DNA of 64,000 nucleotides from the NCBI GenBank assembly GCA_937902735.1, contig CALELS010000013.1, positions 134,523 through 198,522 on the forward strand, in the 5' to 3' direction. Origin of the DNA: an uncultured Bacillales bacterium. GTDB taxonomy: Bacteria > Bacillota_I > Bacilli_A > RFN20 > CAG-826. This document shows positions 1,180 to 12,555 of this stretch, in pieces (positions within the stretch are counted from its first letter, which is position 1; every line of letters begins with the position of its first letter). The translations under genes and the position numbers were made by a program. Below the pieces are notes generated by a model, which was given only the letters and a program-made list of their open reading frames with translations, had not been told where the DNA came from and made no database searches.

Positions 1180-1527
1180 TAGCTTGCTCCTTTTTAATCT
1201 TTCTATTTTTAATAGCCTTAACAATTAAATCAATAATGATATATAGGACTACTAAGAAGATAATGGTTATTATGACATATAAAAATGGTTGGAAATCCAC
1301 AAGCACTACATTATTTTGGAAAATAACCCTATGAATAAATGTTAAACAAATTGGATGGAGTAAATAAGTAAGCGAAGAATGAGCGCCATACCACCATTGA
1401 GGAGGGTTGTGGATAAATAACTAATTCTTTAAGGAATCAAATAGGCACTTTTTCAGCCTGCATTTTTTCCTCTTTGCTTAAGCAAAATTGATTTCGATAA
1501 AATCCCTTATTATAAGAAATGCACAAG

Positions 1528-1570
1528 AGTATTACGGTTTGGTAATAGAGCGGCTCGAAAAATATAAAGC
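1528..1570 (+). promoter_or_regulatory. Promoter-like element TTGGTA-N18-TATAAA; copy 1 of a duplicated ~43-bp leader (second copy at 12799..12842)
   Basis: AGTATTACGGTTTGGTAATAGAGCGGCTCGAAAAATATAAAGC is near-identical to 12799..12842. It lies ~55 nt upstream of the 1624 start. Confidence 0.45.
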
Positions 1571-1623
1571 AGCTTTTATTAATTGAAAGTGAATTATTAT
1601 TCATAGTCCATTAAAATAGATAT

Positions 1624-2463
1624 ATGGCTGAAGACAGAAACCTATTTGGAATGCTTGATGACATTTCGGCTGGCCAAGCTGAGATTTTAAGTGAGATCAC
1701 TGGTGTAAAAACCCATGTTAGTGATACGGATTCTAAAATTGCTGAATTGGAGCAAGAGATTCAAAAGCTTAAAAATAAACCAGTTGCCGAACCAAGACCT
1801 GCAGTAAACGCTCCTCAAAGAAGTGAAAAAGAAATACTACAGACGTTTTTAAAGCAAGCAAAAAAGAGCTGGATGTGGTTTGGTAATAGTGCAGAATTCA
1901 AGAAGTGGAAGATACTCGCTATTATATCCTTATTAATTTTATTAATAGCAGGACTTGCGACAACCATTGTTTCATCTATTTGTTTTAAGCTTTATAGCAC
2001 GTTCACATTGTTTGAAAATGCTTGGATGATATTTGGCATCATCTACTTAGTTTATGCGGCTAAAACGCAGCGTATTTATGAAGTTAATGCGCTTGCTGCT
2101 AATTCATCGACTAAATATGAAAAAGACAATCTGGGAATGATGTTTGCTAGAAAAGAGAAGGTTGTTTTTAGAATTTTCAAATGGCTTGCCATCATTTCTG
2201 TTGTTTGCAACATCATCGCTATATGGGCGGGCATGGGCAAAACAAACCAAGTGTTCGCTACCATAATGGAAGTTCTCTTCTTAGGGGCTATTATATTTGC
2301 TTATTTCATGAATCTTAATTTGTTTGCTCAATATTCAATCATTTATGTCGAAGGACACAACTTAACCACGAAAGAAAGAGTAGTGCTTGTCCTTCCACCA
2401 GGAGCAAAGAGTTTAATGCCTGAAGAAGATTTTAAAAAGAAGATGCCGTTCTTCTACGAATAG
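1624..2463 (+). CDS. Membrane protein: N-terminal coiled coil, 4 predicted TM helices, conserved acidic/KKKMPFFYE tail; paralogous to the C-terminal two-thirds of 13973..15236
   Basis: ORF-track protein with hydrophobic segments LAIISLLILLIAGLATTIV, MIFGIIYLVYAA, LAIISVVCNIIAIWAG and VLFLGAIIFAYFM. It aligns with the 427-aa ORF from RIAALEAW... through KKKMPFLYDKY. Confidence 0.7.
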   Translation: MAEDRNLFGMLDDISAGQAEILSEITGVKTHVSDTDSKIAELEQEIQKLKNKPVAEPRPAVNAPQRSEKEILQTFLKQAKKSWMWFGNSAEFKKWKILAIISLLILLIAGLATTIVSSICFKLYSTFTLFENAWMIFGIIYLVYAAKTQRIYEVNALAANSSTKYEKDNLGMMFARKEKVVFRIFKWLAIISVVCNIIAIWAGMGKTNQVFATIMEVLFLGAIIFAYFMNLNLFAQYSIIYVEGHNLTTKERVVLVLPPGAKSLMPEEDFKKKMPFFYE

Positions 2464-2472
2464 GAGTTGCAT

Positions 2473-3621
2473 ATGTATTTATCTCATTTAAGAATAAAGA
2501 ATCACCCAATTCTCAAAGATTTTGAGTTAGATTTAGTAAATCCAAAAACAGGAAAGCCGTATGCGGTTGTTGCTTTTGTTGGCGAAAATGGTTGTGGCAA
2601 GACAACTCTTTTAAACGAAATCTTTGATTATGAAAATTCCAAATATTTTGTAGATAAAGAGAAAGAGCACCCATTCTCGATCGCTCCATATTGCTCTTTG
2701 TTTTTAAGGCAAAGCAGTCTTGCTAGAAATGCCATGAAAGAAATTGGCAAATTGATTGATGGAAAAGATAGGTATGCTGTTAATAGCCAAAGCGCAGCCA
2801 TTCAAGGAATGAAAACAACCAATCCCTTAGAAGACAAACAGCAAGGACTCAAATTACTAGAAATACTTGATGATGTTGAAATATATAAGCTCTTCAAAGA
2901 AGGAGTGATTAGTGAAGTGGCTTGCGGATCTGAAATATCAAAGTTAATCGATGGTAAAGAACGCGGCTATGACATATCTAATTATTCTTCTGGACAGCAA
3001 GAGATATTACTTAAATTAAAGGACCTGAATGAATTCTATGCAAATACCGACAGTGTGCTTTTGGATGAGCCTGAAACATCACTACATCCAAGATGGCAAT
3101 TGGAAATCGTTAACTTAATTAGATTGCTCTTAACTGATATTAATGGAGACACGCCTCAAATATTCTTAGCTACTCACTCAGAAAAAGTGCTTCAGTCTTT
3201 AATTGGTAAAGAAGATGCTTTGATTGTTAGACTTTTTAAGGAAAAAGGAACCATTAAGAACGAAACTATTAGTCAAATGCAGCTCTTGCTTAGAAAACCA
3301 ACCTTTGCTGAATTAGACTATGTCATTTTCAAAATAGATTCGTATGAATACTGTAATGAATTGTTTGATCTTCTAGAGTGGAGATATGGCGTTAGTGGCG
3401 ATAGGGGCGTTGATAGGAAAATACAAAAGAGCGAATTCTATAATGATGAAAAGCACCATAAAGAGTGGCTTAATGATAAGTTTAATGAAGTTACTTGCTA
3501 CACATTGCCTGTTTATGTTCGAAATTATTTTCACCACCCAAAAGATAAGATTGAGCCCACACCTGAAGAACTGCACGAAGCAATAGAACTACTTCGTAAT
3601 GTCGTTTTAAATTTAGAGTAA
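2473..3621 (+). CDS. ABC/SMC-type P-loop ATPase (AAA_21/AAA_15-like, OLD-N-terminal-like), no nuclease domain
   Basis: Walker A GENGCGKTT, ABC-signature-like YSSGQQE, Walker B VLLDEPETSLH and H-loop LATHS. An AGGAG RBS sits 6 nt before the ATG at 2473. The track's 2467 start is TTG. It begins 10 nt after the membrane-protein stop. Confidence 0.75.
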   Translation: MYLSHLRIKNHPILKDFELDLVNPKTGKPYAVVAFVGENGCGKTTLLNEIFDYENSKYFVDKEKEHPFSIAPYCSLFLRQSSLARNAMKEIGKLIDGKDRYAVNSQSAAIQGMKTTNPLEDKQQGLKLLEILDDVEIYKLFKEGVISEVACGSEISKLIDGKERGYDISNYSSGQQEILLKLKDLNEFYANTDSVLLDEPETSLHPRWQLEIVNLIRLLLTDINGDTPQIFLATHSEKVLQSLIGKEDALIVRLFKEKGTIKNETISQMQLLLRKPTFAELDYVIFKIDSYEYCNELFDLLEWRYGVSGDRGVDRKIQKSEFYNDEKHHKEWLNDKFNEVTCYTLPVYVRNYFHHPKDKIEPTPEELHEAIELLRNVVLNLE

Positions 3622-3698
3622 AAGTGAAATAATATAGTAGACAAAGTTAATCGTCGCTTTCTTCTGTAATCTGCAGTACGAGGAGGAGGTCGCGAATA

Positions 3699-3920
3699 AT
3701 GATTAGCATTTGTCACATCTCTTCCGAAGACTTTTTGGAAGACGTCAAGATTCAGATTAAGAAACAATTCAAGAATCAAGATAACTTTGCAGAAATTATC
3801 TATCTTTCTAGAAAGCAACTTAATCGAATTCTCAATAACGCCGATGACTTAACTGTTCACTGGATTAAAGAATTCTGTGAGAAGCTTGGCTTGGACTTAA
3901 GAAACTACATCTTTGAGTAG
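3699..3920 (+). CDS. Small HTH-like protein (possible regulator)
   Basis: Strong RBS GAGGAGGAGG. LSRKQLNRILNN...LTVHWIKEFCEKLGLDL resembles a helix-turn-helix. Confidence 0.35.
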   Translation: MISICHISSEDFLEDVKIQIKKQFKNQDNFAEIIYLSRKQLNRILNNADDLTVHWIKEFCEKLGLDLRNYIFE

Positions 3921-4030
3921 ATGATAGGGACTTAGGTCCTTTTTCTTTGTCCGTTTTTTTGGGACAAAACAAAGAGTGTGTTTACTTGTGTTCTATAGTA
4001 GTGGTGTCGAAAGGCAAAGGAGAAAAACCT

Positions 4031-4312
4031 ATGGACAGAAAAACACAAGAAATATTCTTCAAAAATTCCGTTGATATGGATGTGATAGGAAAACTTGCTA
4101 GCACAATGGTTGACGGTGTTGATGAAGCAGGAAATCCAAAAAGAATCAAAATCGAAATTAGAAACACTGATGAATTTGATACAAATCTATCTATCGAAGA
4201 AGTTGTCGACAAGATAGACAAAGAGTATGCCAAAGAAGAAATGTTTAAATTAGATCTTCTCAGAGCATGGAAACAAAATAATCACTATGTGATTGTGGGA
4301 GTTAAATTATGA
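4031..4312 (+). CDS. Hypothetical protein (start moved to the internal ATG that has an AAAGGAG RBS)
   Basis: AAAGGAGAAAAACCT-ATG context; no recognisable motif. Confidence 0.4.
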   Translation: MDRKTQEIFFKNSVDMDVIGKLASTMVDGVDEAGNPKRIKIEIRNTDEFDTNLSIEEVVDKIDKEYAKEEMFKLDLLRAWKQNNHYVIVGVKL

Positions 4313-4491
4313 GCGAAAGTTTCATGCAGGTTGCTACGGTATTAGGAATTATTAACACCGTAATAAGCACAATCGCTTGTCCAATCATTGCTGGTTATAA
4401 AAATAGAAGCGTTGTTGGTTGGATATTCGGCGGATTGTTCCTTGGACTCATTGGCCTAATAATTGTTGCCTGCCTTCCACGAAAAGATTAA
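4309..4491 (+). CDS. Small (60 aa) two-TM membrane protein; paralog at 21812..21991
   Basis: ATGA overlap with the upstream stop. About 80% identical to the 59-aa ORF at 21812 (TVLGIINTVIS.IACPIIAGYKNRSV.GW.FGGLFLGLIGLIIVACLPRKD). Confidence 0.5.
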   Translation: MSESFMQVATVLGIINTVISTIACPIIAGYKNRSVVGWIFGGLFLGLIGLIIVACLPRKD

Positions 4492-4754
4492 CCACTAGAG
4501 CCGCATTGTAAATCATATTCATGCCTCCTTTCTAGAATTTACAACTCATAGTTCTTTTACACCCGGCATTCCACTCTAATAGCGGCGTTAGGGTGGGTGC
4601 CAAGCCTTAATTAACGAGATACATCATTATGATGTGATATAATATCGGTAGATTAATAATTTACTCGAAGTGATCAGACACGTTATTTGTCTCGGTAACG
4701 TATCTATCAGCCAAATGGTTATTAAATTATTAGTCACCAGAAAGGGACTCTTTT

Positions 4755-5819
4755 ATGTATAAAAAGACATTCGTGCCACTTCTAATAGCACTAGCCTCAA
4801 TTGGAGTTATTACAGGTTGCTCCAATAAGGGTGAAACTCAAGAAACAATATCTGTAACCGATATGGTCGGTACAACCATAACCATAAACAAGAACCCTAA
4901 AAAGGTAGCTTGTATCTCTAGAACAACATATGACTTGTTAGTAGCGTATGGTCTTGGAGATAAGATTGATGGAGCCTACAAAGGCACACTCAATAATAGT
5001 TGGGTGCCACTCATCTATCCTCAAAGTCAAAATCACTATGTATATGAATACAACAATAGTAGTGAGCTCTTCCTATCAAGAGGAGTAGATTTAGTGTTCG
5101 CTCCTGAAAAGTACATGGCCGATGATTTAAATGCACACGGTATCCCTGCTTTATGCGTTTCCTTATATGGAAATCCAACGTTTGACAATTACGTCACCTT
5201 CCTTTCTCAACTTGTTACTAAGATTTGGGATGGCGATGATATCAAAGCCAAAGCAGCAGCTTGGGAAAACAAAGTCACAACTGCGATTAGTGATGTTACA
5301 ACCGAATTAGTCAAGCATGATGTCTCAAAGAAAAAGATCTTCTATGTTCGTGGCGATAAAGATAAAGGTGTTTGCTATACAGATACTAAATCTTCATTCA
5401 CAGAATATGCCTATAGATCAATGGGCTTTGACTTTGTTGGTGCTTCATTAAACACAACGAACCCTTCTACTGAAGAAGTAGTAGCACAAAACCCAGACGT
5501 CTTTGTTTGCGGTGGTCAATATCAAAACAAGAACATCAATATTCTCAAGACCGAAGAGCCATACACAAATTTAGATGCAGTTAAGAATAACAAAGTCTAT
5601 AACATTCCAATTGGTTTCACTGCATTTGAGCAATTATCCGCTATGACTCCAATATTCTTCTATGACCAAGCAAATAAGATTTATCCAGAGTATTTCTCAT
5701 ATGACATCTCTTCTATGGTTAAAACAAGCGTTAAAGAGTATTTCGGGACAGATTTAACTGATACACAAGTTGGCTATATGCTAAACGGACTTAATCCACA
5801 AGGCGGCTCGTTGTACTAA
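4755..5819 (+). CDS. ABC transporter substrate-binding lipoprotein (Fe-siderophore/B12 periplasmic-binding-protein type)
   Basis: Lipobox LIALASIGVITGCSN. Position fits an operon with a FecCD permease and an ATPase. Confidence 0.75.
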   Translation: MYKKTFVPLLIALASIGVITGCSNKGETQETISVTDMVGTTITINKNPKKVACISRTTYDLLVAYGLGDKIDGAYKGTLNNSWVPLIYPQSQNHYVYEYNNSSELFLSRGVDLVFAPEKYMADDLNAHGIPALCVSLYGNPTFDNYVTFLSQLVTKIWDGDDIKAKAAAWENKVTTAISDVTTELVKHDVSKKKIFYVRGDKDKGVCYTDTKSSFTEYAYRSMGFDFVGASLNTTNPSTEEVVAQNPDVFVCGGQYQNKNINILKTEEPYTNLDAVKNNKVYNIPIGFTAFEQLSAMTPIFFYDQANKIYPEYFSYDISSMVKTSVKEYFGTDLTDTQVGYMLNGLNPQGGSLY

Positions 5820-6844
5820 TGAATGAAAAAGCATTAAAAAGAAGAACTTTAATATCATTCATCGTTTCAATAGCAGTATTTGTAGTAGTCTTCGCCCTAG
5901 CTTTGATGCTAGGAAGATACAGAATCAAGATTGATGAGTTCTTTAAAGCTGTGTTCACGGATGGCTCTGCTTTGAATACGCAAAGAAGTATTATCGTCAA
6001 TCTTCGATTCCCAAGAACCATAATGGCGGCATTTGTTGGTATTGGCTTGTCTTTGTCTGGCTTGCTTTATCAAGAAACATTTAGAAATAAGCTTGTATCA
6101 CCTGATTTATTAGGTGTAAGTACTGGCGCATCAGTTGGTGCAGCCTTAGCCATTGTTCTTGGACTATCATCTGCCTTCATTAGTGTATTTGCATTCTTAA
6201 TGGGCTTATTAACTGTGTTTGTTACAGTGATGATATCTAAGCTATTTAGAAACGGTTCATCAACCATATTGCTGTTATCAGGCATTATCGTTGGCGGTTT
6301 CATGTCTGCGATATTATCGATGATTAAGTACTTCTCGGACGATGTCACAACATTAGCCAGCATTACTTATTGGCTTATGGGTTCATTTGAGAGTGCAGAT
6401 ATGAGTAGAGACTACATCCTAATGGGAGTGGTGGTTGTCTGTGTTGTTGTTTTGCTTCTCATTTCTCATCCAATTAACTTGGTTAATCAAGGAAAGGCTG
6501 AAGCTCAAACAAAAGGCATTAACTACAACTTCTATCGTGGTTTGATCATTGTCTTATCAACAGTTCTTACTGCTATATCGGTATGTTTCTGTGGAACCAT
6601 ATCTTGGATTGGTTTGGTCATTCCACATATAGTTAGATTGCTTGCTGGAAGAGATGCGAAAAGGACCATTCCTCTATGCATAACTTTTGGCGGAACATTC
6701 ATGATTGCGGTTGATGTTTTGTCTAGATCTTTCACTGATTCAGAGATTCCTTTAAGTGCTGTGACAGGACTTTTAGGAACAGTTATATTCGTAGTTATTT
6801 TGATTATTAAAAGGAGGAAGTTAAATGAACATAAAGACATCTAA
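5819..6844 (+). CDS. FecCD-family ABC permease (iron-siderophore/cobalamin type)
   Basis: Polytopic membrane protein typical of the FecCD/BtuC family. ATGA-type overlap with the upstream gene. Confidence 0.85.
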   Translation: MNEKALKRRTLISFIVSIAVFVVVFALALMLGRYRIKIDEFFKAVFTDGSALNTQRSIIVNLRFPRTIMAAFVGIGLSLSGLLYQETFRNKLVSPDLLGVSTGASVGAALAIVLGLSSAFISVFAFLMGLLTVFVTVMISKLFRNGSSTILLLSGIIVGGFMSAILSMIKYFSDDVTTLASITYWLMGSFESADMSRDYILMGVVVVCVVVLLLISHPINLVNQGKAEAQTKGINYNFYRGLIIVLSTVLTAISVCFCGTISWIGLVIPHIVRLLAGRDAKRTIPLCITFGGTFMIAVDVLSRSFTDSEIPLSAVTGLLGTVIFVVILIIKRRKLNEHKDI

Positions 6845-7598
6845 TTTATCCTTTAAATACGATAAAAAAGCAGCAAAACCCGTATTAAATTCAATAAATC
6901 TCGAGATTAAAGAGGGAACTGTCAATGTTTTACTTGGCTTAAACGGCTGTGGCAAAACCACCCTTATTAAACTCCTTGCTGGCCTTGAAAAACCAACAGA
7001 AGGAGCCATCTATTATGATGATCAAGATTTACAAACCATACACATTAAAGAGAGAGCCAAGAAGTTCTCATATGTTCCTCAGCAAGCCAATGTAACAAGC
7101 GATGTTCCAGTTAGACAATATTTATCTTATGGAACTACAAACACGCTCGCGTTTTATGAACATCCTGGTAAAGAAGAAATGAAGTTGGTGGAAGACTCTG
7201 CAGAGAAACTTCACATCACTCATTTACTTGATAAGAATCTTGGCGAGATAAGTGGTGGTGAACTTCAAACAGTACTAATTGCGTGTTCATTAATTCAAAA
7301 CACACCAATTATGCTTTTGGATGAACCAACATCTGCTCTTGATATGAAGAACCAAAATTTAGTTTTATCCATCCTCAAAGACATTGCTAAAGAGCAAAAT
7401 AAAACAATTGTTCTTTCATCACATAATCCAAACCATGCATTGTTCTTAGATGCCAACGTTGTGCTCATACACGATGGTGTGGTGCGTGAAGAAGGAACCG
7501 CAAAAAAATTAATTAAAGTTGAAAAGCTCGTTCCAATCTATGGAGACCATGTATGCGTTTCTAAAGATTTAGGGTACGAAGAAATATCATTTAAATAG
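6825..7598 (+). CDS. ABC transporter ATP-binding protein
   Basis: Walker A GLNGCGKTT, signature LSGGELQ, Walker B LLDEPTSALD. Confidence 0.9.
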   Translation: MNIKTSNLSFKYDKKAAKPVLNSINLEIKEGTVNVLLGLNGCGKTTLIKLLAGLEKPTEGAIYYDDQDLQTIHIKERAKKFSYVPQQANVTSDVPVRQYLSYGTTNTLAFYEHPGKEEMKLVEDSAEKLHITHLLDKNLGEISGGELQTVLIACSLIQNTPIMLLDEPTSALDMKNQNLVLSILKDIAKEQNKTIVLSSHNPNHALFLDANVVLIHDGVVREEGTAKKLIKVEKLVPIYGDHVCVSKDLGYEEISFK

Positions 7599-7696: not shown

Positions 7697-8344
7697 ATGG
7701 AAAATCAAAAATTTAAGAAAAACGCCAACAACATCATGTGGGTAGAGTACTGGATTAGAAAGGCCCACCCTTCATTTGAAGAATATGAACTGTATGCTGA
7801 GAGATACGATGATTGCAGATGGATCTGCGAAATCGAATTACCTCTAATCAACAAAACAGTTAAATCTATTTCCGAAAAAGAAGTAAACGCAATGCTAAGT
7901 GCTTCAGAAAAAGCAGCAAAACTCATCAATGAATATATGAAAGAGCATCCAGAGCTCGTAATCAGAAATTCATTTAAAGGAAAACGCTGGGAAATCGTAA
8001 GCGATGAAAACGGCAAATTCCTCTCGATGGGTATGAGCAGTGCCTGGAGACGCGAACAAGGCAAGCAAATGGAAAAGATGACAAGAGATTCACTTGAAGC
8101 CGTTAAGAAAGCAATCAAAAGACTAGCCAAGATTAATGGAACCAGTAAGAATTTATTTATCCAAGTCCTAGATCAATCGCTCTTCGATGAAGACAAATCA
8201 ATCCAAGACATTATGTATGAAGTAAATAACAAAATTGAAAACGATTATCATATGAGCAACATGACAGTCTGTTACGACAAAGATGGAGATAGTGTAATCG
8301 TAGTGGGTTACACCTTCCCGTCTAAGAAAGGAGGTCTCCAATAA
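7697..8344 (+). CDS. Hypothetical protein
   Basis: Long ORF with a GAAAGTGAG RBS-like context; no recognisable motif. Confidence 0.5.
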   Translation: MENQKFKKNANNIMWVEYWIRKAHPSFEEYELYAERYDDCRWICEIELPLINKTVKSISEKEVNAMLSASEKAAKLINEYMKEHPELVIRNSFKGKRWEIVSDENGKFLSMGMSSAWRREQGKQMEKMTRDSLEAVKKAIKRLAKINGTSKNLFIQVLDQSLFDEDKSIQDIMYEVNNKIENDYHMSNMTVCYDKDGDSVIVVGYTFPSKKGGLQ

Positions 8345-9077
8345 TGAAATACTTATTCTTCGATATTGAATGTTCAAATTGTTTCAATGGTGTTGGTAAG
8401 ATGTGCGAGTTTGGATACGTCCTTACTGACGAAAACTTCAACATCATGAAACATGGCGATATACCAATGTCTCCTGGTAAAGGCAGCGACTGCAGGTTCT
8501 ATCTTAAGGGTAGGAAGCATGAAAAAGACCTAGAGCTAGCATATGAGTATGACTATTACTTCAGTCAACCAGAATTCCCATCATTCTATAACCAAATAAA
8601 AAGGATGATGGAAGATCCTGACACTGCATGCTTTGCCTACTCAATGGATAACGATATTCCTCATCTACATCAATGAATGTATGTGTTACCGCATACCATA
8701 AGTCATTCGAGTGTGGTCGTCTAAACGAGTTAGCAGATCTATTTCCAGATTTAAGTGACCATTTAAGGAATATAAGTGACCATGTTGTAGATCTAGAAGA
8801 GCCTTTTTCAAAAGGGATGTTCTATGATGTTGCGATGGGTGGCAGAAGTTCTATTAAAGTGGTGTTACCTGCCTTATATCCAAACGACCCAGAATTGGAT
8901 TACCATTCTCTTCCTCTTGTGCATAATGGTGGAGAGGCCATGGACATTTATCCGAAAATGTTAGAAGCTAATCCTGGTGAAAAAGAAAAGATTAGGCATG
9001 GTCTACTTGTCTACTGTTGCTTAGATACTTTAGCAATGGTAAAGGTGCTTAAAAAGCTCAGAGAATATATCAAATAA
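8344..9077 (+). CDS. DnaQ-like (DEDD) 3'-5' exonuclease-like protein encoded as two overlapping ORFs (8344..8676 and 8673..9077)
   Basis: LFFDIECSN...FGYV matches Exo I (DxE). HGLLVYCCLDTLAM in the second ORF resembles the Exo III region. The ORFs are in different frames and joined at cAATGAatg (ATGA overlap). This is either a frameshift-split gene or a coupled gene pair. Confidence 0.45.
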
Positions 9078-9722: not shown

Positions 9723-10235
9723 ATGGTTATCAAAGCTATCTATATGGATATCACAAAAATAGGTGAATTAGCTGATGTTATTGTCAACGCTGCAAACGAA
9801 TCACTGCTAGGCGGTGGTGGTGTTGACGGTGCAATCCATAGAGCAGCCGGCCCAGAATTGTTAGAGGAATGTCGAACTCTTCATGGGTGTCATCCTGGAG
9901 AGGCCAAAGCTACTAAAGCGTATAGATTAAAGAACAAGTACATTATTCATACAGTTGGACCGCGTTATTATTCTGACCCGCATCCAGCAGAAACATTAGC
10001 AAATTGTTATTTAAATTGCTTAAAACTAGCAGATGAACTTGGAATGGAATCTATAGCATTTCCATCAATATCAACAGGCATATTTGGATATCCGGTTGAA
10101 GAGGCTGCTGAAATATGTGCTAAGGTAGTATGTGGCTACAAGCCAAAGCACTTGAAATATGGATACATGTGCATTCTTAATGACGAACACAACGAGGCTG
10201 TTTACAACGGAGCATTCCAAAAATTCAATCATTAG
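9723..10235 (+). CDS. Macro-domain protein (ADP-ribose/O-acetyl-ADP-ribose processing, MacroD/YmdB-like)
   Basis: [28 protein letters not shown] and [13 protein letters not shown] are canonical macro-domain motifs. Confidence 0.85.
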
Positions 10236-10273: not shown

Positions 10274-11584
10274 ATGTTTAATCAGGAATCTATCAATTTG
10301 TTCGTTAAAAAATTCAATATCTTTTTTAGAACAAAGATGGAGATAGTTATTAAAAGAGAACAAAAGAACTATGATTTGCTCAACACTTTTTTAACCATAT
10401 TCTCTCCAGATAAAATTCCGTCATTAGCTCTTGAAGATTATTGTTTTGCAAAAGGCAATAAGAACACTATGTGCTATTGGATTGATAACACGCTTAATGA
10501 TTTGGGAGACATACACATTAATGGCCAATGTGGCTTTCAGAAATTCGGTATTCAAAATATAAATGGTGAATACGTATTCAAGAGAAGCAATCAAACAAAT
10601 TGTAAATACGGTGATAATTCTGATGACGTTTATAAAACAATTAACTCAGAGCTAATAAAAGTCATTGCTGCAGCTATTGCGTTTAATGCCGACGAAATTG
10701 ACAAATCAATGCTTCCCCAAGTTTTTAAATCGAAACTTTCATATTTATATAACAAAGATCATTGGATGCCTATTTATGTCAATACCGATGTGGATAAGCT
10801 ATTAGATGTTTTTGAAATTCCATATTATCATTCTGAATCTTTGACAAAAAAGCGAGTCAAACTATATTACTTCTACTTAGAAGTGAAAAAGCAAATACCA
10901 TTTATTACTACATGGGAATTTATGAACTTTGTTTATTCTGTTGATGGATATAGAGATTATCTAAGGAATGGTAAACCTGTTAATCATTCAAGCGCAAACG
11001 CCGAAATACGAATGAGTGGCCCAGATGACTCTACGATCAATTCTCAGGACAGCGAAGAAGACGAATTAGATTTGAGCGATGAGGATTTGATTGAATTTGT
11101 AGGCACTTATACTAAAAACGGAACAATTGATAACGGAGTTACTGCTTCCAGAAAGAAAAGAAACACACCAAGAAAGACGGACTACCAAAGAAAGCAGAAG
11201 AATAATGAGCGAAAAGGAACGATTGGAGAAAAGCTTATTTACAATGATGAAGTAAGTAAAATTGCTAATCTGAATCTTAATTTAGAAGTTATTCATAATG
11301 CTGCAAACGATGATACTCTTGGTTATGACATCACTTCTTATGATGAGAAAGGTAAAAAAATCTTTATTGAAGTTAAAACAACTACGAGTGGCAGAATAGA
11401 TGGCTTTCATCTCTCTGTTAAGGAAGTTGAGAAAGCTATTGAATTAGGAGAAAGATTCAAATTGTACCGTGTTTATAATTTAAATGTAAAAAACAAAACA
11501 TACGACGTTGAAATCTTTAATGGTGTAGAACTATTTGAAACCTTCAAACTCAAAGAAACAAGCTTCATTGCTTTAATTAATTAG
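10274..11584 (+). CDS. Two-domain protein: unknown N-terminal domain + C-terminal DUF3883-type PD-(D/E)xK nuclease
   Basis: C-terminal LGYDITSYDEKGKKIFIEVKTTTSGRIDGFHLSVKEVEKA matches the DUF3883 pattern (GyDI...IEVKtt...f.lS.nE). Confidence 0.6.
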   Translation: MFNQESINLFVKKFNIFFRTKMEIVIKREQKNYDLLNTFLTIFSPDKIPSLALEDYCFAKGNKNTMCYWIDNTLNDLGDIHINGQCGFQKFGIQNINGEYVFKRSNQTNCKYGDNSDDVYKTINSELIKVIAAAIAFNADEIDKSMLPQVFKSKLSYLYNKDHWMPIYVNTDVDKLLDVFEIPYYHSESLTKKRVKLYYFYLEVKKQIPFITTWEFMNFVYSVDGYRDYLRNGKPVNHSSANAEIRMSGPDDSTINSQDSEEDELDLSDEDLIEFVGTYTKNGTIDNGVTASRKKRNTPRKTDYQRKQKNNERKGTIGEKLIYNDEVSKIANLNLNLEVIHNAANDDTLGYDITSYDEKGKKIFIEVKTTTSGRIDGFHLSVKEVEKAIELGERFKLYRVYNLNVKNKTYDVEIFNGVELFETFKLKETSFIALIN

Positions 11585-11586
11585 AT

Positions 11587-12555
11587 ATGTCTAAAAAATC
11601 AATTTACATAGTTGAAAACGAGATTCGTCCTGGCGATTATGTTTTCTTTTATAGTGGAGAAGTTCTTACCGTAACTAAATACGATAAAGACAGACATAGA
11701 ATCACATTTGAAGATGGCTCCGTTAGAGATCTCTATGTCATATATGATAACTATGTTTCAGATATACGTCATCCGGCTGAAAAAGTTACAAAAACAAAGT
11801 CAGATAAGAAATGCAGTTCAAAATCAAAAACTACGAAAGCCAAACCCGCAAAGAGAGAATCCAAGACGTTCTCCCTTTATGCGTTAGCAAGCGGGAAACC
11901 TGGAAAGAAATTCACAATCAAAGCATTTCTGCAAATAACTAAGAACGCTAAGAAAAAGCCAGGTGGAGCCAATACTGAAAAGACAATTAAGCTCGATGAC
12001 GGTTATGTTTATGAAGCTGATTCGCAGCAAGAAATATCGACGCTTAAAAAGTTGATTTCGCATGATGCTTTTAAAAGATTGAGGGGACAATGCATTAATA
12101 TCCCGTATAGATATGGTGGTAAGACCCATAATTACTATCCCGATTTTATCATTCTCACTCAGACCAACAAGATCATTATTATGGAAGTAAAAGAAATTGC
12201 CCAAATGAACACAAAGCAGAATATCAAAAAATATGATGCTCTTAAGAGATATTGTGAGAAGAATGGTTATTTATATATCATGTGCGATAAATCATTTAAA
12301 CCATATGAAAAACTTAGTAAGTTCACTGCAAGTAGTCGAGTGGAAACTGCAATCGATGATGCTCTTGACGAAAAAGGATGTTTTGATTATTCAGATTTTA
12401 AAGAATTGATAAAAGGCAAAGACCATAAAAAGATAAAAGGCATCAGAAACTCGATCGGTATTTATATCAAATCACACAAAAAAGTCAAAATGATTGGCGA
12501 TTTAACATTCAATAGTTCAGATTTCCGTATTATTAGAATCAAGAAGAAGAAATAG
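11587..12555 (+). CDS. PD-(D/E)xK-fold nuclease-like protein with small N-terminal beta-rich domain and K-rich linker
   Basis: YYPDFIILTQTNKIIIMEVKE (PD...EVK). Begins 2 nt after the upstream stop. Confidence 0.5.
   Translation: MSKKSIYIVENEIRPGDYVFFYSGEVLTVTKYDKDRHRITFEDGSVRDLYVIYDNYVSDIRHPAEKVTKTKSDKKCSSKSKTTKAKPAKRESKTFSLYALASGKPGKKFTIKAFLQITKNAKKKPGGANTEKTIKLDDGYVYEADSQQEISTLKKLISHDAFKRLRGQCINIPYRYGGKTHNYYPDFIILTQTNKIIIMEVKEIAQMNTKQNIKKYDALKRYCEKNGYLYIMCDKSFKPYEKLSKFTASSRVETAIDDALDEKGCFDYSDFKELIKGKDHKKIKGIRNSIGIYIKSHKKVKMIGDLTFNSSDFRIIRIKKKK

Follow-up and report, generated by a model that had tools for sequence, protein, structure and literature searches.

The 64,000-nucleotide window analysed here is a stretch of a contig from an uncultured Bacillales bacterium (CALELS010000013.1, positions 134,523 to 198,522 of the forward strand), and the locus in question lies near its beginning, where two co-directional open reading frames (ORFs) occupy positions 1624-2463 and 2467/2473-3621 of the plus strand. 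The first encodes a protein with four transmembrane (TM) segments by hydropathy, here called MEM-A, and the second encodes an ATP-binding cassette (ABC) ATPase; the pair of membrane protein and ATPase that an earlier sequence-only reading had proposed at 1624-3621 is therefore present. The ATPase can start at TTG 2467 or at ATG 2473, and the latter start, which gives a protein of 382 residues, is adopted because the homologue consensus begins with MYLSHL and a GGAG ribosome-binding site is found at 2463-2466. With this start, the gap between the stop codon of the membrane-protein gene and the ATPase gene is 9 nt, and not the 10 nt given in the sequence-only reading. Full-length homologues are found for both proteins (388 for the ATPase and 132 for the membrane protein), so both ORFs are real genes and not chance ORFs, and the named sources of these homologues are metagenome-assembled genomes (MAGs) labelled Bacilli, Mollicutes, Bacillales or Candidatus Enteromonas. 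A third gene, which encodes a small helix-turn-helix (HTH) protein, starts 77 nt 3' of the ATPase gene and is followed by a terminator-like site (Table 1). Searches for other regulatory elements give little: no Rfam family reaches its gathering threshold across the window, the region 1180-4800 has only a chance-level match to Rfam, and an operator search upstream of the operon finds no convincing palindrome, little conservation and no conserved operator.

Table 1. Features of the locus and of its surroundings; positions refer to the window unless a related locus (L number) is named.
Feature	Position	Strand	Basis or remark
MEM-A, 4-TM membrane protein, 279 aa	1624..2463	+	ORF; 132 homologues; hydropathy
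N-terminal motif DRNLFGMLDDI of MEM-A (residues 4-14), putative ATPase-docking element	1633..1665	+	sole element common to both 4-TM types
Four predicted TM segments of MEM-A (1909-1980, 1999-2061, 2164-2232, 2254-2322)	1909..2322	+	Kyte-Doolittle profile, loop charges
GGAG ribosome-binding site	2463..2466	+	6 nt 5' of ATPase ATG; overlaps MEM-A stop codon
OLD-type ABC ATPase (residues 1-~270) with HEPN-like C-terminal domain, 382 aa	2473..3621	+	Pfam AAA_15/AAA_21; AlphaFold2 model; Foldseek
Walker A GENGCGKT (G37-T44)	2581..2604	+	G37, N39, G42, K43 invariant in 52 diverse relatives
Q-loop Q80	2710-2712	+	read from sequence; conserved in alignments
ABC signature-like SSGQQE (S172-E177)	2986..3003	+	G174 invariant in 52 relatives; aligns to AriA SSGERQ
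Walker B and D-loop VLLDEPETSLHP (V195-P206)	3055..3090	+	E199, E201, H205 invariant in 52 relatives
H-loop histidine H235 (in ATHSEK)	3175..3177	+	at least 90% conserved (52 relatives)
HEPN-like C-terminal domain, residues ~276-382	3298..3618	+	AlphaFold2 domain model, pLDDT 93.4
RNxxxH (Rx4H) motif R350-N-Y-F-H-H355	3520..3537	+	end of third core helix, start of next loop
Xre-type HTH protein, 73 aa, putative regulator/antitoxin	3699..3920	+	weak HTH_19/HTH_3 matches; linkage
Terminator-like hairpin and T-run, end of three-gene unit	3926..3941	+	consensus match only
Macro-domain protein	9723-10235	+	downstream of window transporter
NOV_C protein	10274-11584	+	downstream of window transporter
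TnsA-like endonuclease protein	11587-12555	+	downstream of window transporter
Membrane-gene deletion scars	L099 3590-3790; L100 1-390		sequence; ATPase intact 3'

The ATPase matches the Pfam models AAA_15 with 66.9 bits (cut-off 32.1) and AAA_21 with 51.3 bits (cut-off 27), as the sequence-only reading had expected, and the Walker A, Walker B, SSGQQE and H-loop motifs listed in that reading are all found in the sequence and are conserved in alignments. The segment LLDEPETSLHP, which belongs to the Walker B and D-loop region, begins at 3058. In PADLOC the best matches are PtuA (1e-24) and AriA (6e-20), which extend over just part of the ATPase core (residues ~120-270 for PtuA), and the closest solved proteins by sequence matches to the PDB are AriA, PtuA, retron ATPases and an OLD nuclease; GajA models match as well. 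In larger relatives, the PADLOC model of Old (P2 Old) is matched over its ATPase part at 1e-50 and 2e-40, and these matches end at about position 346-369 of 578. The AlphaFold2 (AF2) model of the full-length ATPase, built from 51 sequences, has a pLDDT of 89.7; its top Foldseek matches are Rad50, retron PtuA, Eco8 and MacB, and in the PDB it retrieves generic ABC heads only. AAA_15/AAA_21 heads are present in all 52 sampled relatives that carry the C-terminal domain described below. AAA_13 has no match in the window protein and only weak matches in six of these 52 relatives, the best at 1e-4. By sequence, these matches support the placement of the protein among the OLD/AriA/PtuA/GajA-type ABC ATPases of defence systems, and together with a neighbourhood rich in defence genes they agree with the defence-type ATPase of the sequence-only reading. 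None of the matches to known ATPases reaches past residue ~275.

The region that follows, residues ~276-382, forms a C-terminal domain (C-domain), which the sequence-only reading overlooked, as it did the universally linked HTH gene. That reading held that the ATPase has no Toprim or nuclease domain. The first half stands, as residues 270-382 have no Toprim match in Pfam, NCBIfam or PADLOC, while the second half gives way to a candidate nuclease domain with an invariant RNxxxH motif. The AF2 model of the domain has helices at residues 278-286, 291-305, 309-319 (which contains D314), 345-354 and 364-379, and the insert 320-344 is composed of a short helix and a beta-hairpin. Conservation was read from the alignments A5 and A6, which contain 52 and 44 diverse sequences, respectively. 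R350 and H355 are the sole invariant residues of the C-domain in the 52 sequences, which are 20-49% identical to the window protein, and both are invariant in the 44-sequence set too; conservation of at least 90% is seen for N351 and D314, and the consensus of the motif region across relatives is TLPTYIRNxIHHP. The presence of invariant R350 and H355 outside the ATPase motifs suggests catalysis rather than a scaffold role. When 1.84 billion cluster representatives are searched by HMMER with the C-domain, 593 clusters (50% identity) are found, almost all of which have the domain at the C-terminus of a protein of 380-500 aa. The family spreads from Bacilli to Proteobacteria, Bacteroidota and plasmids.

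These features resemble the active site of HEPN domains, which is built by an Rx4-6H motif whose arginine is followed by N, D or H (Anantharaman et al. 2013, PMC3710099). In HEPN domains the motif ends core helix 3 and starts the loop to helix 4, an acidic residue is located in helix 2, and an insert between helices 2 and 3 is common (PMC3710099). The C-domain has the motif as R350-N351-x-x-x-H355, and the AF2 model has the same layout, with the motif at the end of helix 345-354, D314 in helix 309-319 and the insert 320-344 between them. The order of an ABC ATPase and a C-terminal HEPN domain is already recognised as the architecture of the PrrC, RloC, APECO1_4465 and ERFG_01251 groups (PMC3710099). 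With a confidence slightly better than even, we read the locus as a PrrC-like ABC-ATPase/HEPN abortive-infection module, in which the HTH protein is a regulator and the membrane protein a facultative accessory.

The membrane protein MEM-A begins with a presumably cytoplasmic region of 95 aa that contains a coiled-coil-like stretch, continues with two TM hairpins and ends in a C-tail of 45 aa, which is conserved. By hydropathy, the TM segments are located at about residues 96-119, 126-146, 181-203 and 211-233. The N-terminus, the 35-aa middle loop and the C-tail are on the K/R-rich side, presumably the cytoplasmic one, and the outside loops have just 5-7 residues, so the protein has almost no extracellular surface. 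MEM-A has no family match in Pfam, NCBIfam, PHROG or PADLOC. The co-occurrence of the pair in other genomes, proposed as a check in the sequence-only reading, is observed: in 17 of 25 distinct alleles the ATPase gene has a 4-TM gene upstream of it, at a distance of -3 to 12 nt, and in the other eight the 4-TM gene is missing. The 4-TM partners are of two types, type A with 253-288 aa, to which the window protein belongs, and type B with 238-239 aa. In hhalign, MEM-A and MEM-B are related with a probability of 88% and E 2.8e-6 over residues 2-50 only, and their TM bodies are not detectably related. The shared region contains the motif [DEN]R.[LIVM][FILV][EGDQ][RMK]LD.I (DRxxxxxLDDI) at residues ~4-14, which has 18 matches and is restricted, in all fetched loci, to the N-terminus of 4-TM partners. 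The membrane protein thus likely docks on the ATPase via this N-terminal segment.

Pairs of ATPase and HTH protein that are almost identical can have either type of membrane protein. Between L073 and L076 the two domains of the ATPase are 93 and 88% identical and the HTH proteins 97%, while the membrane proteins share just 17% identity. Over the family, membrane-protein identity tracks neither ATPase domain (Spearman 0.23 and -0.10), and the idea of a specific co-evolving pair of membrane protein and ATPase was dropped because of the coefficient of 0.23. In very close relatives of the window genome, which have transporter proteins 92-95% identical to those of the window and an identical HTH protein, the membrane gene is deleted and the ATPase ORF is intact. 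One scar (L099, L101 and L104) retains ATG ATT CTT ACG AAT AGG AGG, which corresponds to the start codon, the last codons and the ribosome-binding site, and another (L100 and L105) retains the last ~15 codons of the membrane gene. The membrane partner is absent from all distant relatives, including the plasmid copies. The membrane protein is dispensable, because it is missing in eight of 25 alleles, leaves deletion scars beside intact ATPase genes and is absent in distant relatives. From these patterns we conclude that it is probably an optional accessory, and neither the sole effector nor an antitoxin.

The sequence-only reading had assigned the effector role to the membrane protein, and this role is not retained, given that the ATPase has its own candidate effector domain and the membrane gene is both dispensable and swapped beside nearly unchanged ATPases. 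A rival explanation keeps that role: the ATPase would be a sensor or motor only, the 4-TM protein would kill or arrest the cell by permeabilising the membrane, as in CBASS, retron or RexAB-type systems, and the C-domain would be regulatory or would serve oligomerisation. The tight coupling of the 4-TM gene to the ATPase gene in most alleles fits this explanation, the same N-terminal motif on two unrelated 4-TM bodies is what is expected of exchangeable effectors that dock on one sensor, and the C-domain stays short of the statistical thresholds for a HEPN assignment. We nevertheless consider a membrane effector unlikely, as the clean deletions, the alleles that have no 4-TM gene and its absence throughout the wider family, plasmid copies included, leave the ATPase without its supposed effector, and the R and H of the RNxxxH motif are the only invariant residues outside the ATPase motifs.

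Other proteins encoded upstream of the ATPase gene in related loci were considered as alternative partners: a 526-aa protein in L067, a 599-aa protein in L077, a Macro protein in L069 and a TrmA-like protein in L078. They are probably mere neighbours, because they have neither the N-terminal motif nor PADLOC matches. In a rumen Bacilli MAG (L006, 9779-10030) there is no membrane gene upstream of the ATPase, and the ATPase ORF has 84 extra 5' codons that match the N-terminal domain of ribosomal protein L9 (PF01281, E 7e-9).

The HTH gene is the most constant neighbour of the ATPase. An HTH gene encoding 70-80 aa lies directly 3' of the ATPase gene in all 24 close-family alleles with downstream sequence. 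The exact HTH protein of the window is encoded in 112 contigs, the exact ATPase in 2 and the exact membrane protein in 2; the ATPases found with this same HTH protein range from 56 to 100% in identity. HTH identity correlates with the identity of the ATPase C-domain (Spearman 0.78), and physical adjacency could explain part of this correlation. The HTH proteins weakly resemble the PezA/HigA and CapH models. In L080 (2367-2902), the 73-aa HTH gene is present in two tandem copies after the ATPase gene.

The universal linkage of the two genes, the correlation with the C-domain and the weak similarity of the HTH proteins to antitoxin or regulator models also fit a selfish toxin-antitoxin (TA) or addiction cassette with no dedicated anti-phage role, in which the ATPase-HEPN protein would be the toxin, the HTH protein the antitoxin or autorepressor, the site a recombination hotspot and the membrane gene a passenger. 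Lone plasmid copies of the ATPase beside other TA genes point in the same direction. This alternative appears improbable to us. Wider-family ATPases on plasmids and beside restriction-modification (R-M) genes have no adjacent HTH gene, and the ATPase is therefore tolerated without an HTH partner. Two observations also speak against tight co-evolution of toxin and antitoxin: identical HTH proteins pair with C-domains that are just 61-65% identical, and between L072 and L090 the HTH proteins are 100% and the C-domains 46% identical. TA and abortive-infection roles are, moreover, not mutually exclusive, and a HEPN-like effector that serves abortive infection remains the reading that we prefer.

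Close-family loci were collected from ATPase homologues, a C-domain-specific metagenome scan, substrate-binding protein (SBP) homologues and contigs that encode the identical HTH protein. All those with enough downstream sequence adjoin the same Peripla_BP_2/FecCD/ABC_tran operon, with the module upstream of it. In the window the operon occupies 4755-7598 and encodes its own ABC_tran nucleotide-binding domain (NBD) at 6825-7598, which was read via L097, a locus identical to the window. Four of nine SBP-anchored samples (L091, L093, L095 and L096) have the transporter but not the module. In L093, L095 and L096 it lies in housekeeping surroundings, and in L091 a 603-aa AAA_15 protein and type I R-M genes are found in place of the module; this AAA_15 protein was rejected as a family member, as it has no C-domain match. 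The ATPase is not part of the adjacent transporter, because the operon encodes a separate NBD and is also found where the module is missing. In this it differs from the NBD of a classical ABC importer, a possibility that the sequence-only reading had set against its own proposal.

The module could still be a lineage-specific housekeeping or regulatory unit of the Peripla_BP_2/FecCD/ABC uptake system, for instance in the control of metal, haem or cobalamin import, and its strict synteny upstream of the transporter, kept even at 34-60% transporter identity, is what this explanation predicts. We hold it to be highly improbable. Besides the separate NBD and the samples of the transporter that have no module, the transporter evolves much more slowly than the module and the two are incongruent, relatives of the ATPase are found in R-M, RhuM and plasmid contexts without any transporter, a terminator-like site separates the two units and no riboswitch is detected.

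The incongruence is seen when genomes are compared. In related genomes the transporter proteins are 80-95% identical to those of the window and the ATPase 49-58%, while a genome with a far more distant transporter (34-43%) has a closer ATPase (62%). The ATPases of L073 and L071 are 90-100% identical to about residue 300 and 22-57% identical after it, and between the window and L001 the ATPase head is 65-90% and the C-domain 20-50% identical. Two stretches of the ATPase, at about residues 81-140 and 301-340, are hypervariable. The locus is a fast-evolving mosaic, with recombination breakpoints inside the ATPase gene, and its variation is of the kind that an arms race produces, which favours the defence reading.

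The surroundings of the close family contain many defence genes. They include DarT/Macro (L005 and L090), BREX (L088), HNH, NERD and type I R-M HsdR proteins (L092), and a UvrD-like helicase with DUF2726 and an SRA/NUDIX protein (L004). In the window the Macro, NOV_C and TnsA-like genes form a defence-island-like cluster downstream of the transporter, which is therefore flanked by variable genes on both sides. The loci L088 (9475-13059) and L089 (9584-12327) are identical through the module and the transporter and then carry BrxA/BrxB/BrxC (BREX) and a serine recombinase, respectively, which suggests that the far side of the transporter holds a second variable hotspot.

Between the module and the transporter of the window, overlapping plus-strand genes encode a 93-aa protein without family (4031-4312) and a 60-aa two-TM protein (4309-4491); the latter is 80-95% conserved in most related loci, and the former is swapped for an unrelated 114-aa gene in many of them. 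A non-coding leader of ~260 nt (4492-4754) precedes the Peripla_BP_2 gene, and it contains no Rfam riboswitch at gathering thresholds or at E<=1. After the transporter, two overlapping plus-strand ORFs at 8344-8676 and 8673-9077 encode 110 and 134 aa, the second with a DUF2779 C-terminal match. This pair looks like a frameshifted or split gene, as related loci have a single gene of ~330 aa there, and the split is shared by L097, whose whole sequence is identical to the window.

Distant relatives of the ATPase (444-528 aa) occur beside R-M and RhuM genes and on plasmids. In L015 (4764-9850), and also in L016, a 444-aa relative lies 18 nt 3' of a FokI-type endonuclease gene, with a D12-class methyltransferase gene ahead of the latter; this arrangement echoes the embedding of PrrC in R-M loci. 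In L023 and L085 distant relatives are found directly before RhuM-family genes. A Klebsiella IncFIB plasmid has a lone relative between two IS elements beside a TIR gene, and a 15-kb mobilizable plasmid of Weissella has a lone relative after an integrase gene. PrrC-like genes also adjoin R-M and RhuM genes (PMC3710099).

Among known systems, PrrC and RloC share with the window protein, by description, the same domain order of an ABC ATPase and a C-terminal helical domain with an Rx4-6H-type motif (PMC3710099), and they share the neighbourhood of R-M and RhuM genes with the relatives of the window protein. They differ in the head, which is of AAA_13 type in PrrC and RloC and of OLD/AAA_15-AAA_21 type in the window protein. 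The prrC gene lies inside a type I R-M locus, by which it is silenced, while no R-M gene adjoins the window module. The window family also differs in its constant HTH gene and frequent 4-TM neighbour, and we know of no description of HTH or 4-TM neighbours for PrrC or RloC. In size, PrrC has about 396 aa and the window ATPase 382 aa. The APECO1_4465 and ERFG_01251 groups, compared by description only, have a similar architecture, and with the ApeA HEPN family (HEPN_Apea) the C-domain has a recurrent weak match below the cut-off.

The ATPase head is closest by sequence to the nucleases of the OLD family (P2 Old, GajA) and to the split ABC and Toprim systems PARIS AriA/AriB and AbiL. In Old and GajA a Toprim domain occupies the position that is filled in the window protein by the helical RNxxxH domain of ~105 aa, and no Toprim partner gene is found. 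Septu is similar in that PtuA models are the best PADLOC matches of the ATPase, but the HNH partner (PtuB) is missing and the NCBIfam PtuA model gives 30.6 bits for a cut-off of 500. The neighbouring 4-TM and HTH genes have no Pfam or PADLOC match to the PtuB HNH, AriB Toprim or GajB helicase partners. Lambda RexA/RexB and the CBASS and retron systems with TM effectors have a small multi-TM protein encoded beside a cytoplasmic sensor, as in the window; the window system differs from them in that its membrane protein is dispensable, interchangeable and almost without extracellular surface, and its cytoplasmic partner has a candidate nuclease of its own.

Several results weigh against the PrrC-like reading of the module, and most of them concern the C-domain. 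No significant profile or fold match to any established HEPN family was found. Among Pfam families, HEPN_Apea alone matches at least two C-domain fragments (2 of 26 and 3 of 44), with a best E of 0.0011, and its best score of 14.9 bits is below the cut-off of 24.4. The second-best match of the A6 profile among 177,635 PDB sequences is RNase L's KEN domain, aligned on the catalytic IRNLGEH, with an E of 0.73, which is not significant, and the A4 profile of the C-domain has no match among PDB sequences. Foldseek searches of the isolated C-domain against the PDB and BFVD give nothing below E 0.1 (best E 1.4 in the PDB, no match in BFVD), and the weak matches include the HEPN proteins Csx1-Crn2 (TMq 0.37) and Las1. 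No PADLOC model covers the C-domain, where only scattered single-member noise appears, including one Csx1 match, and Pfam scans of 10 distant relatives and 52 family members name no C-terminal domain. The matches to HEPN_Apea, to RNase L and to Csx1-Crn2 and Las1 are independent weak signals in favour of a HEPN domain, but because each of them is insignificant on its own, HEPN membership of the C-domain is something that we infer, with support from motif and model, and do not present as a demonstrated fact.

The genomic evidence has its own weak points for this reading. In the close family, each locus with enough downstream sequence has the same chromosomal position, upstream of the same transporter, so inherited synteny and physical linkage, rather than function, could account for the linkage of the HTH gene and partly for that of the membrane gene. 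The pair L072 and L090 breaks the correlation between C-domain and HTH protein. No relatives are found in phage or viral collections (IMG/VR, GenBank phages), and the organisms that carry the close family are uncultured.

Beyond the genes, ATPase motifs, domain boundaries, conservation, linkage, mosaicism and context, which are direct observations, we infer an RNase activity, its trigger, roles for the HTH and membrane proteins and a defence phenotype; the mechanism is proposed because of the analogy with PrrC/RloC and OLD-type sensors. The ATPase head would act as the sensor or switch that keeps a HEPN-like RNase latent, and a trigger linked to infection would alter the nucleotide or oligomeric state of the ATPase and free the HEPN site. 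This site would be formed by R350, N351 and H355, helped by D314, and would act as a metal-independent RNase. Once freed, it may cut cellular RNA, most plausibly tRNA or mRNA, and translation would stop. The HTH protein would most likely repress the operon, neutralise the RNase domain, or both. Where it is present, the 4-TM protein may tether or tune the ATPase at the membrane, probably via its DRxxxxxLDDI segment.

A bolder version of this proposal, which we offer tentatively and rate as rather doubtful, is a membrane-associated three-part ABC-ATPase/HEPN immune module of uncultured gut Bacilli. In it the exchangeable 4-TM proteins would dock via DRxxxxxLDDI and would be second effectors or membrane-located sensors that respond, for instance, to envelope stress or to the entry of a phage genome. 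Four cassettes, namely the membrane body, the ATPase head with its hypervariable inserts, the HEPN domain with its hypervariable insert and the HTH protein, would be reshuffled by recombination at one fixed chromosomal hotspot, which would create new specificities.

The design of an ABC ATPase with a HEPN domain is already known. The combination of an OLD-type head with a C-domain outside Pfam and PADLOC, a constant HTH gene and an exchangeable 4-TM accessory appears to be unnamed in the libraries searched. Neither Pfam nor PADLOC sees the HEPN-like domain, and tools built on them therefore call such genes incomplete Septu, PARIS or Gabija ATPases. If the C-domain is an active HEPN RNase, the family of 593 clusters would be a new branch of ATPase-gated RNase defence, and it would join an OLD-type head to a PrrC-type effector in proteins that databases label just as 'AAA family ATPase'. 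The version found in gut Bacilli is a natural experiment in which a putative sensor, effector and regulator and an optional membrane adaptor are shuffled at a single conserved hotspot.

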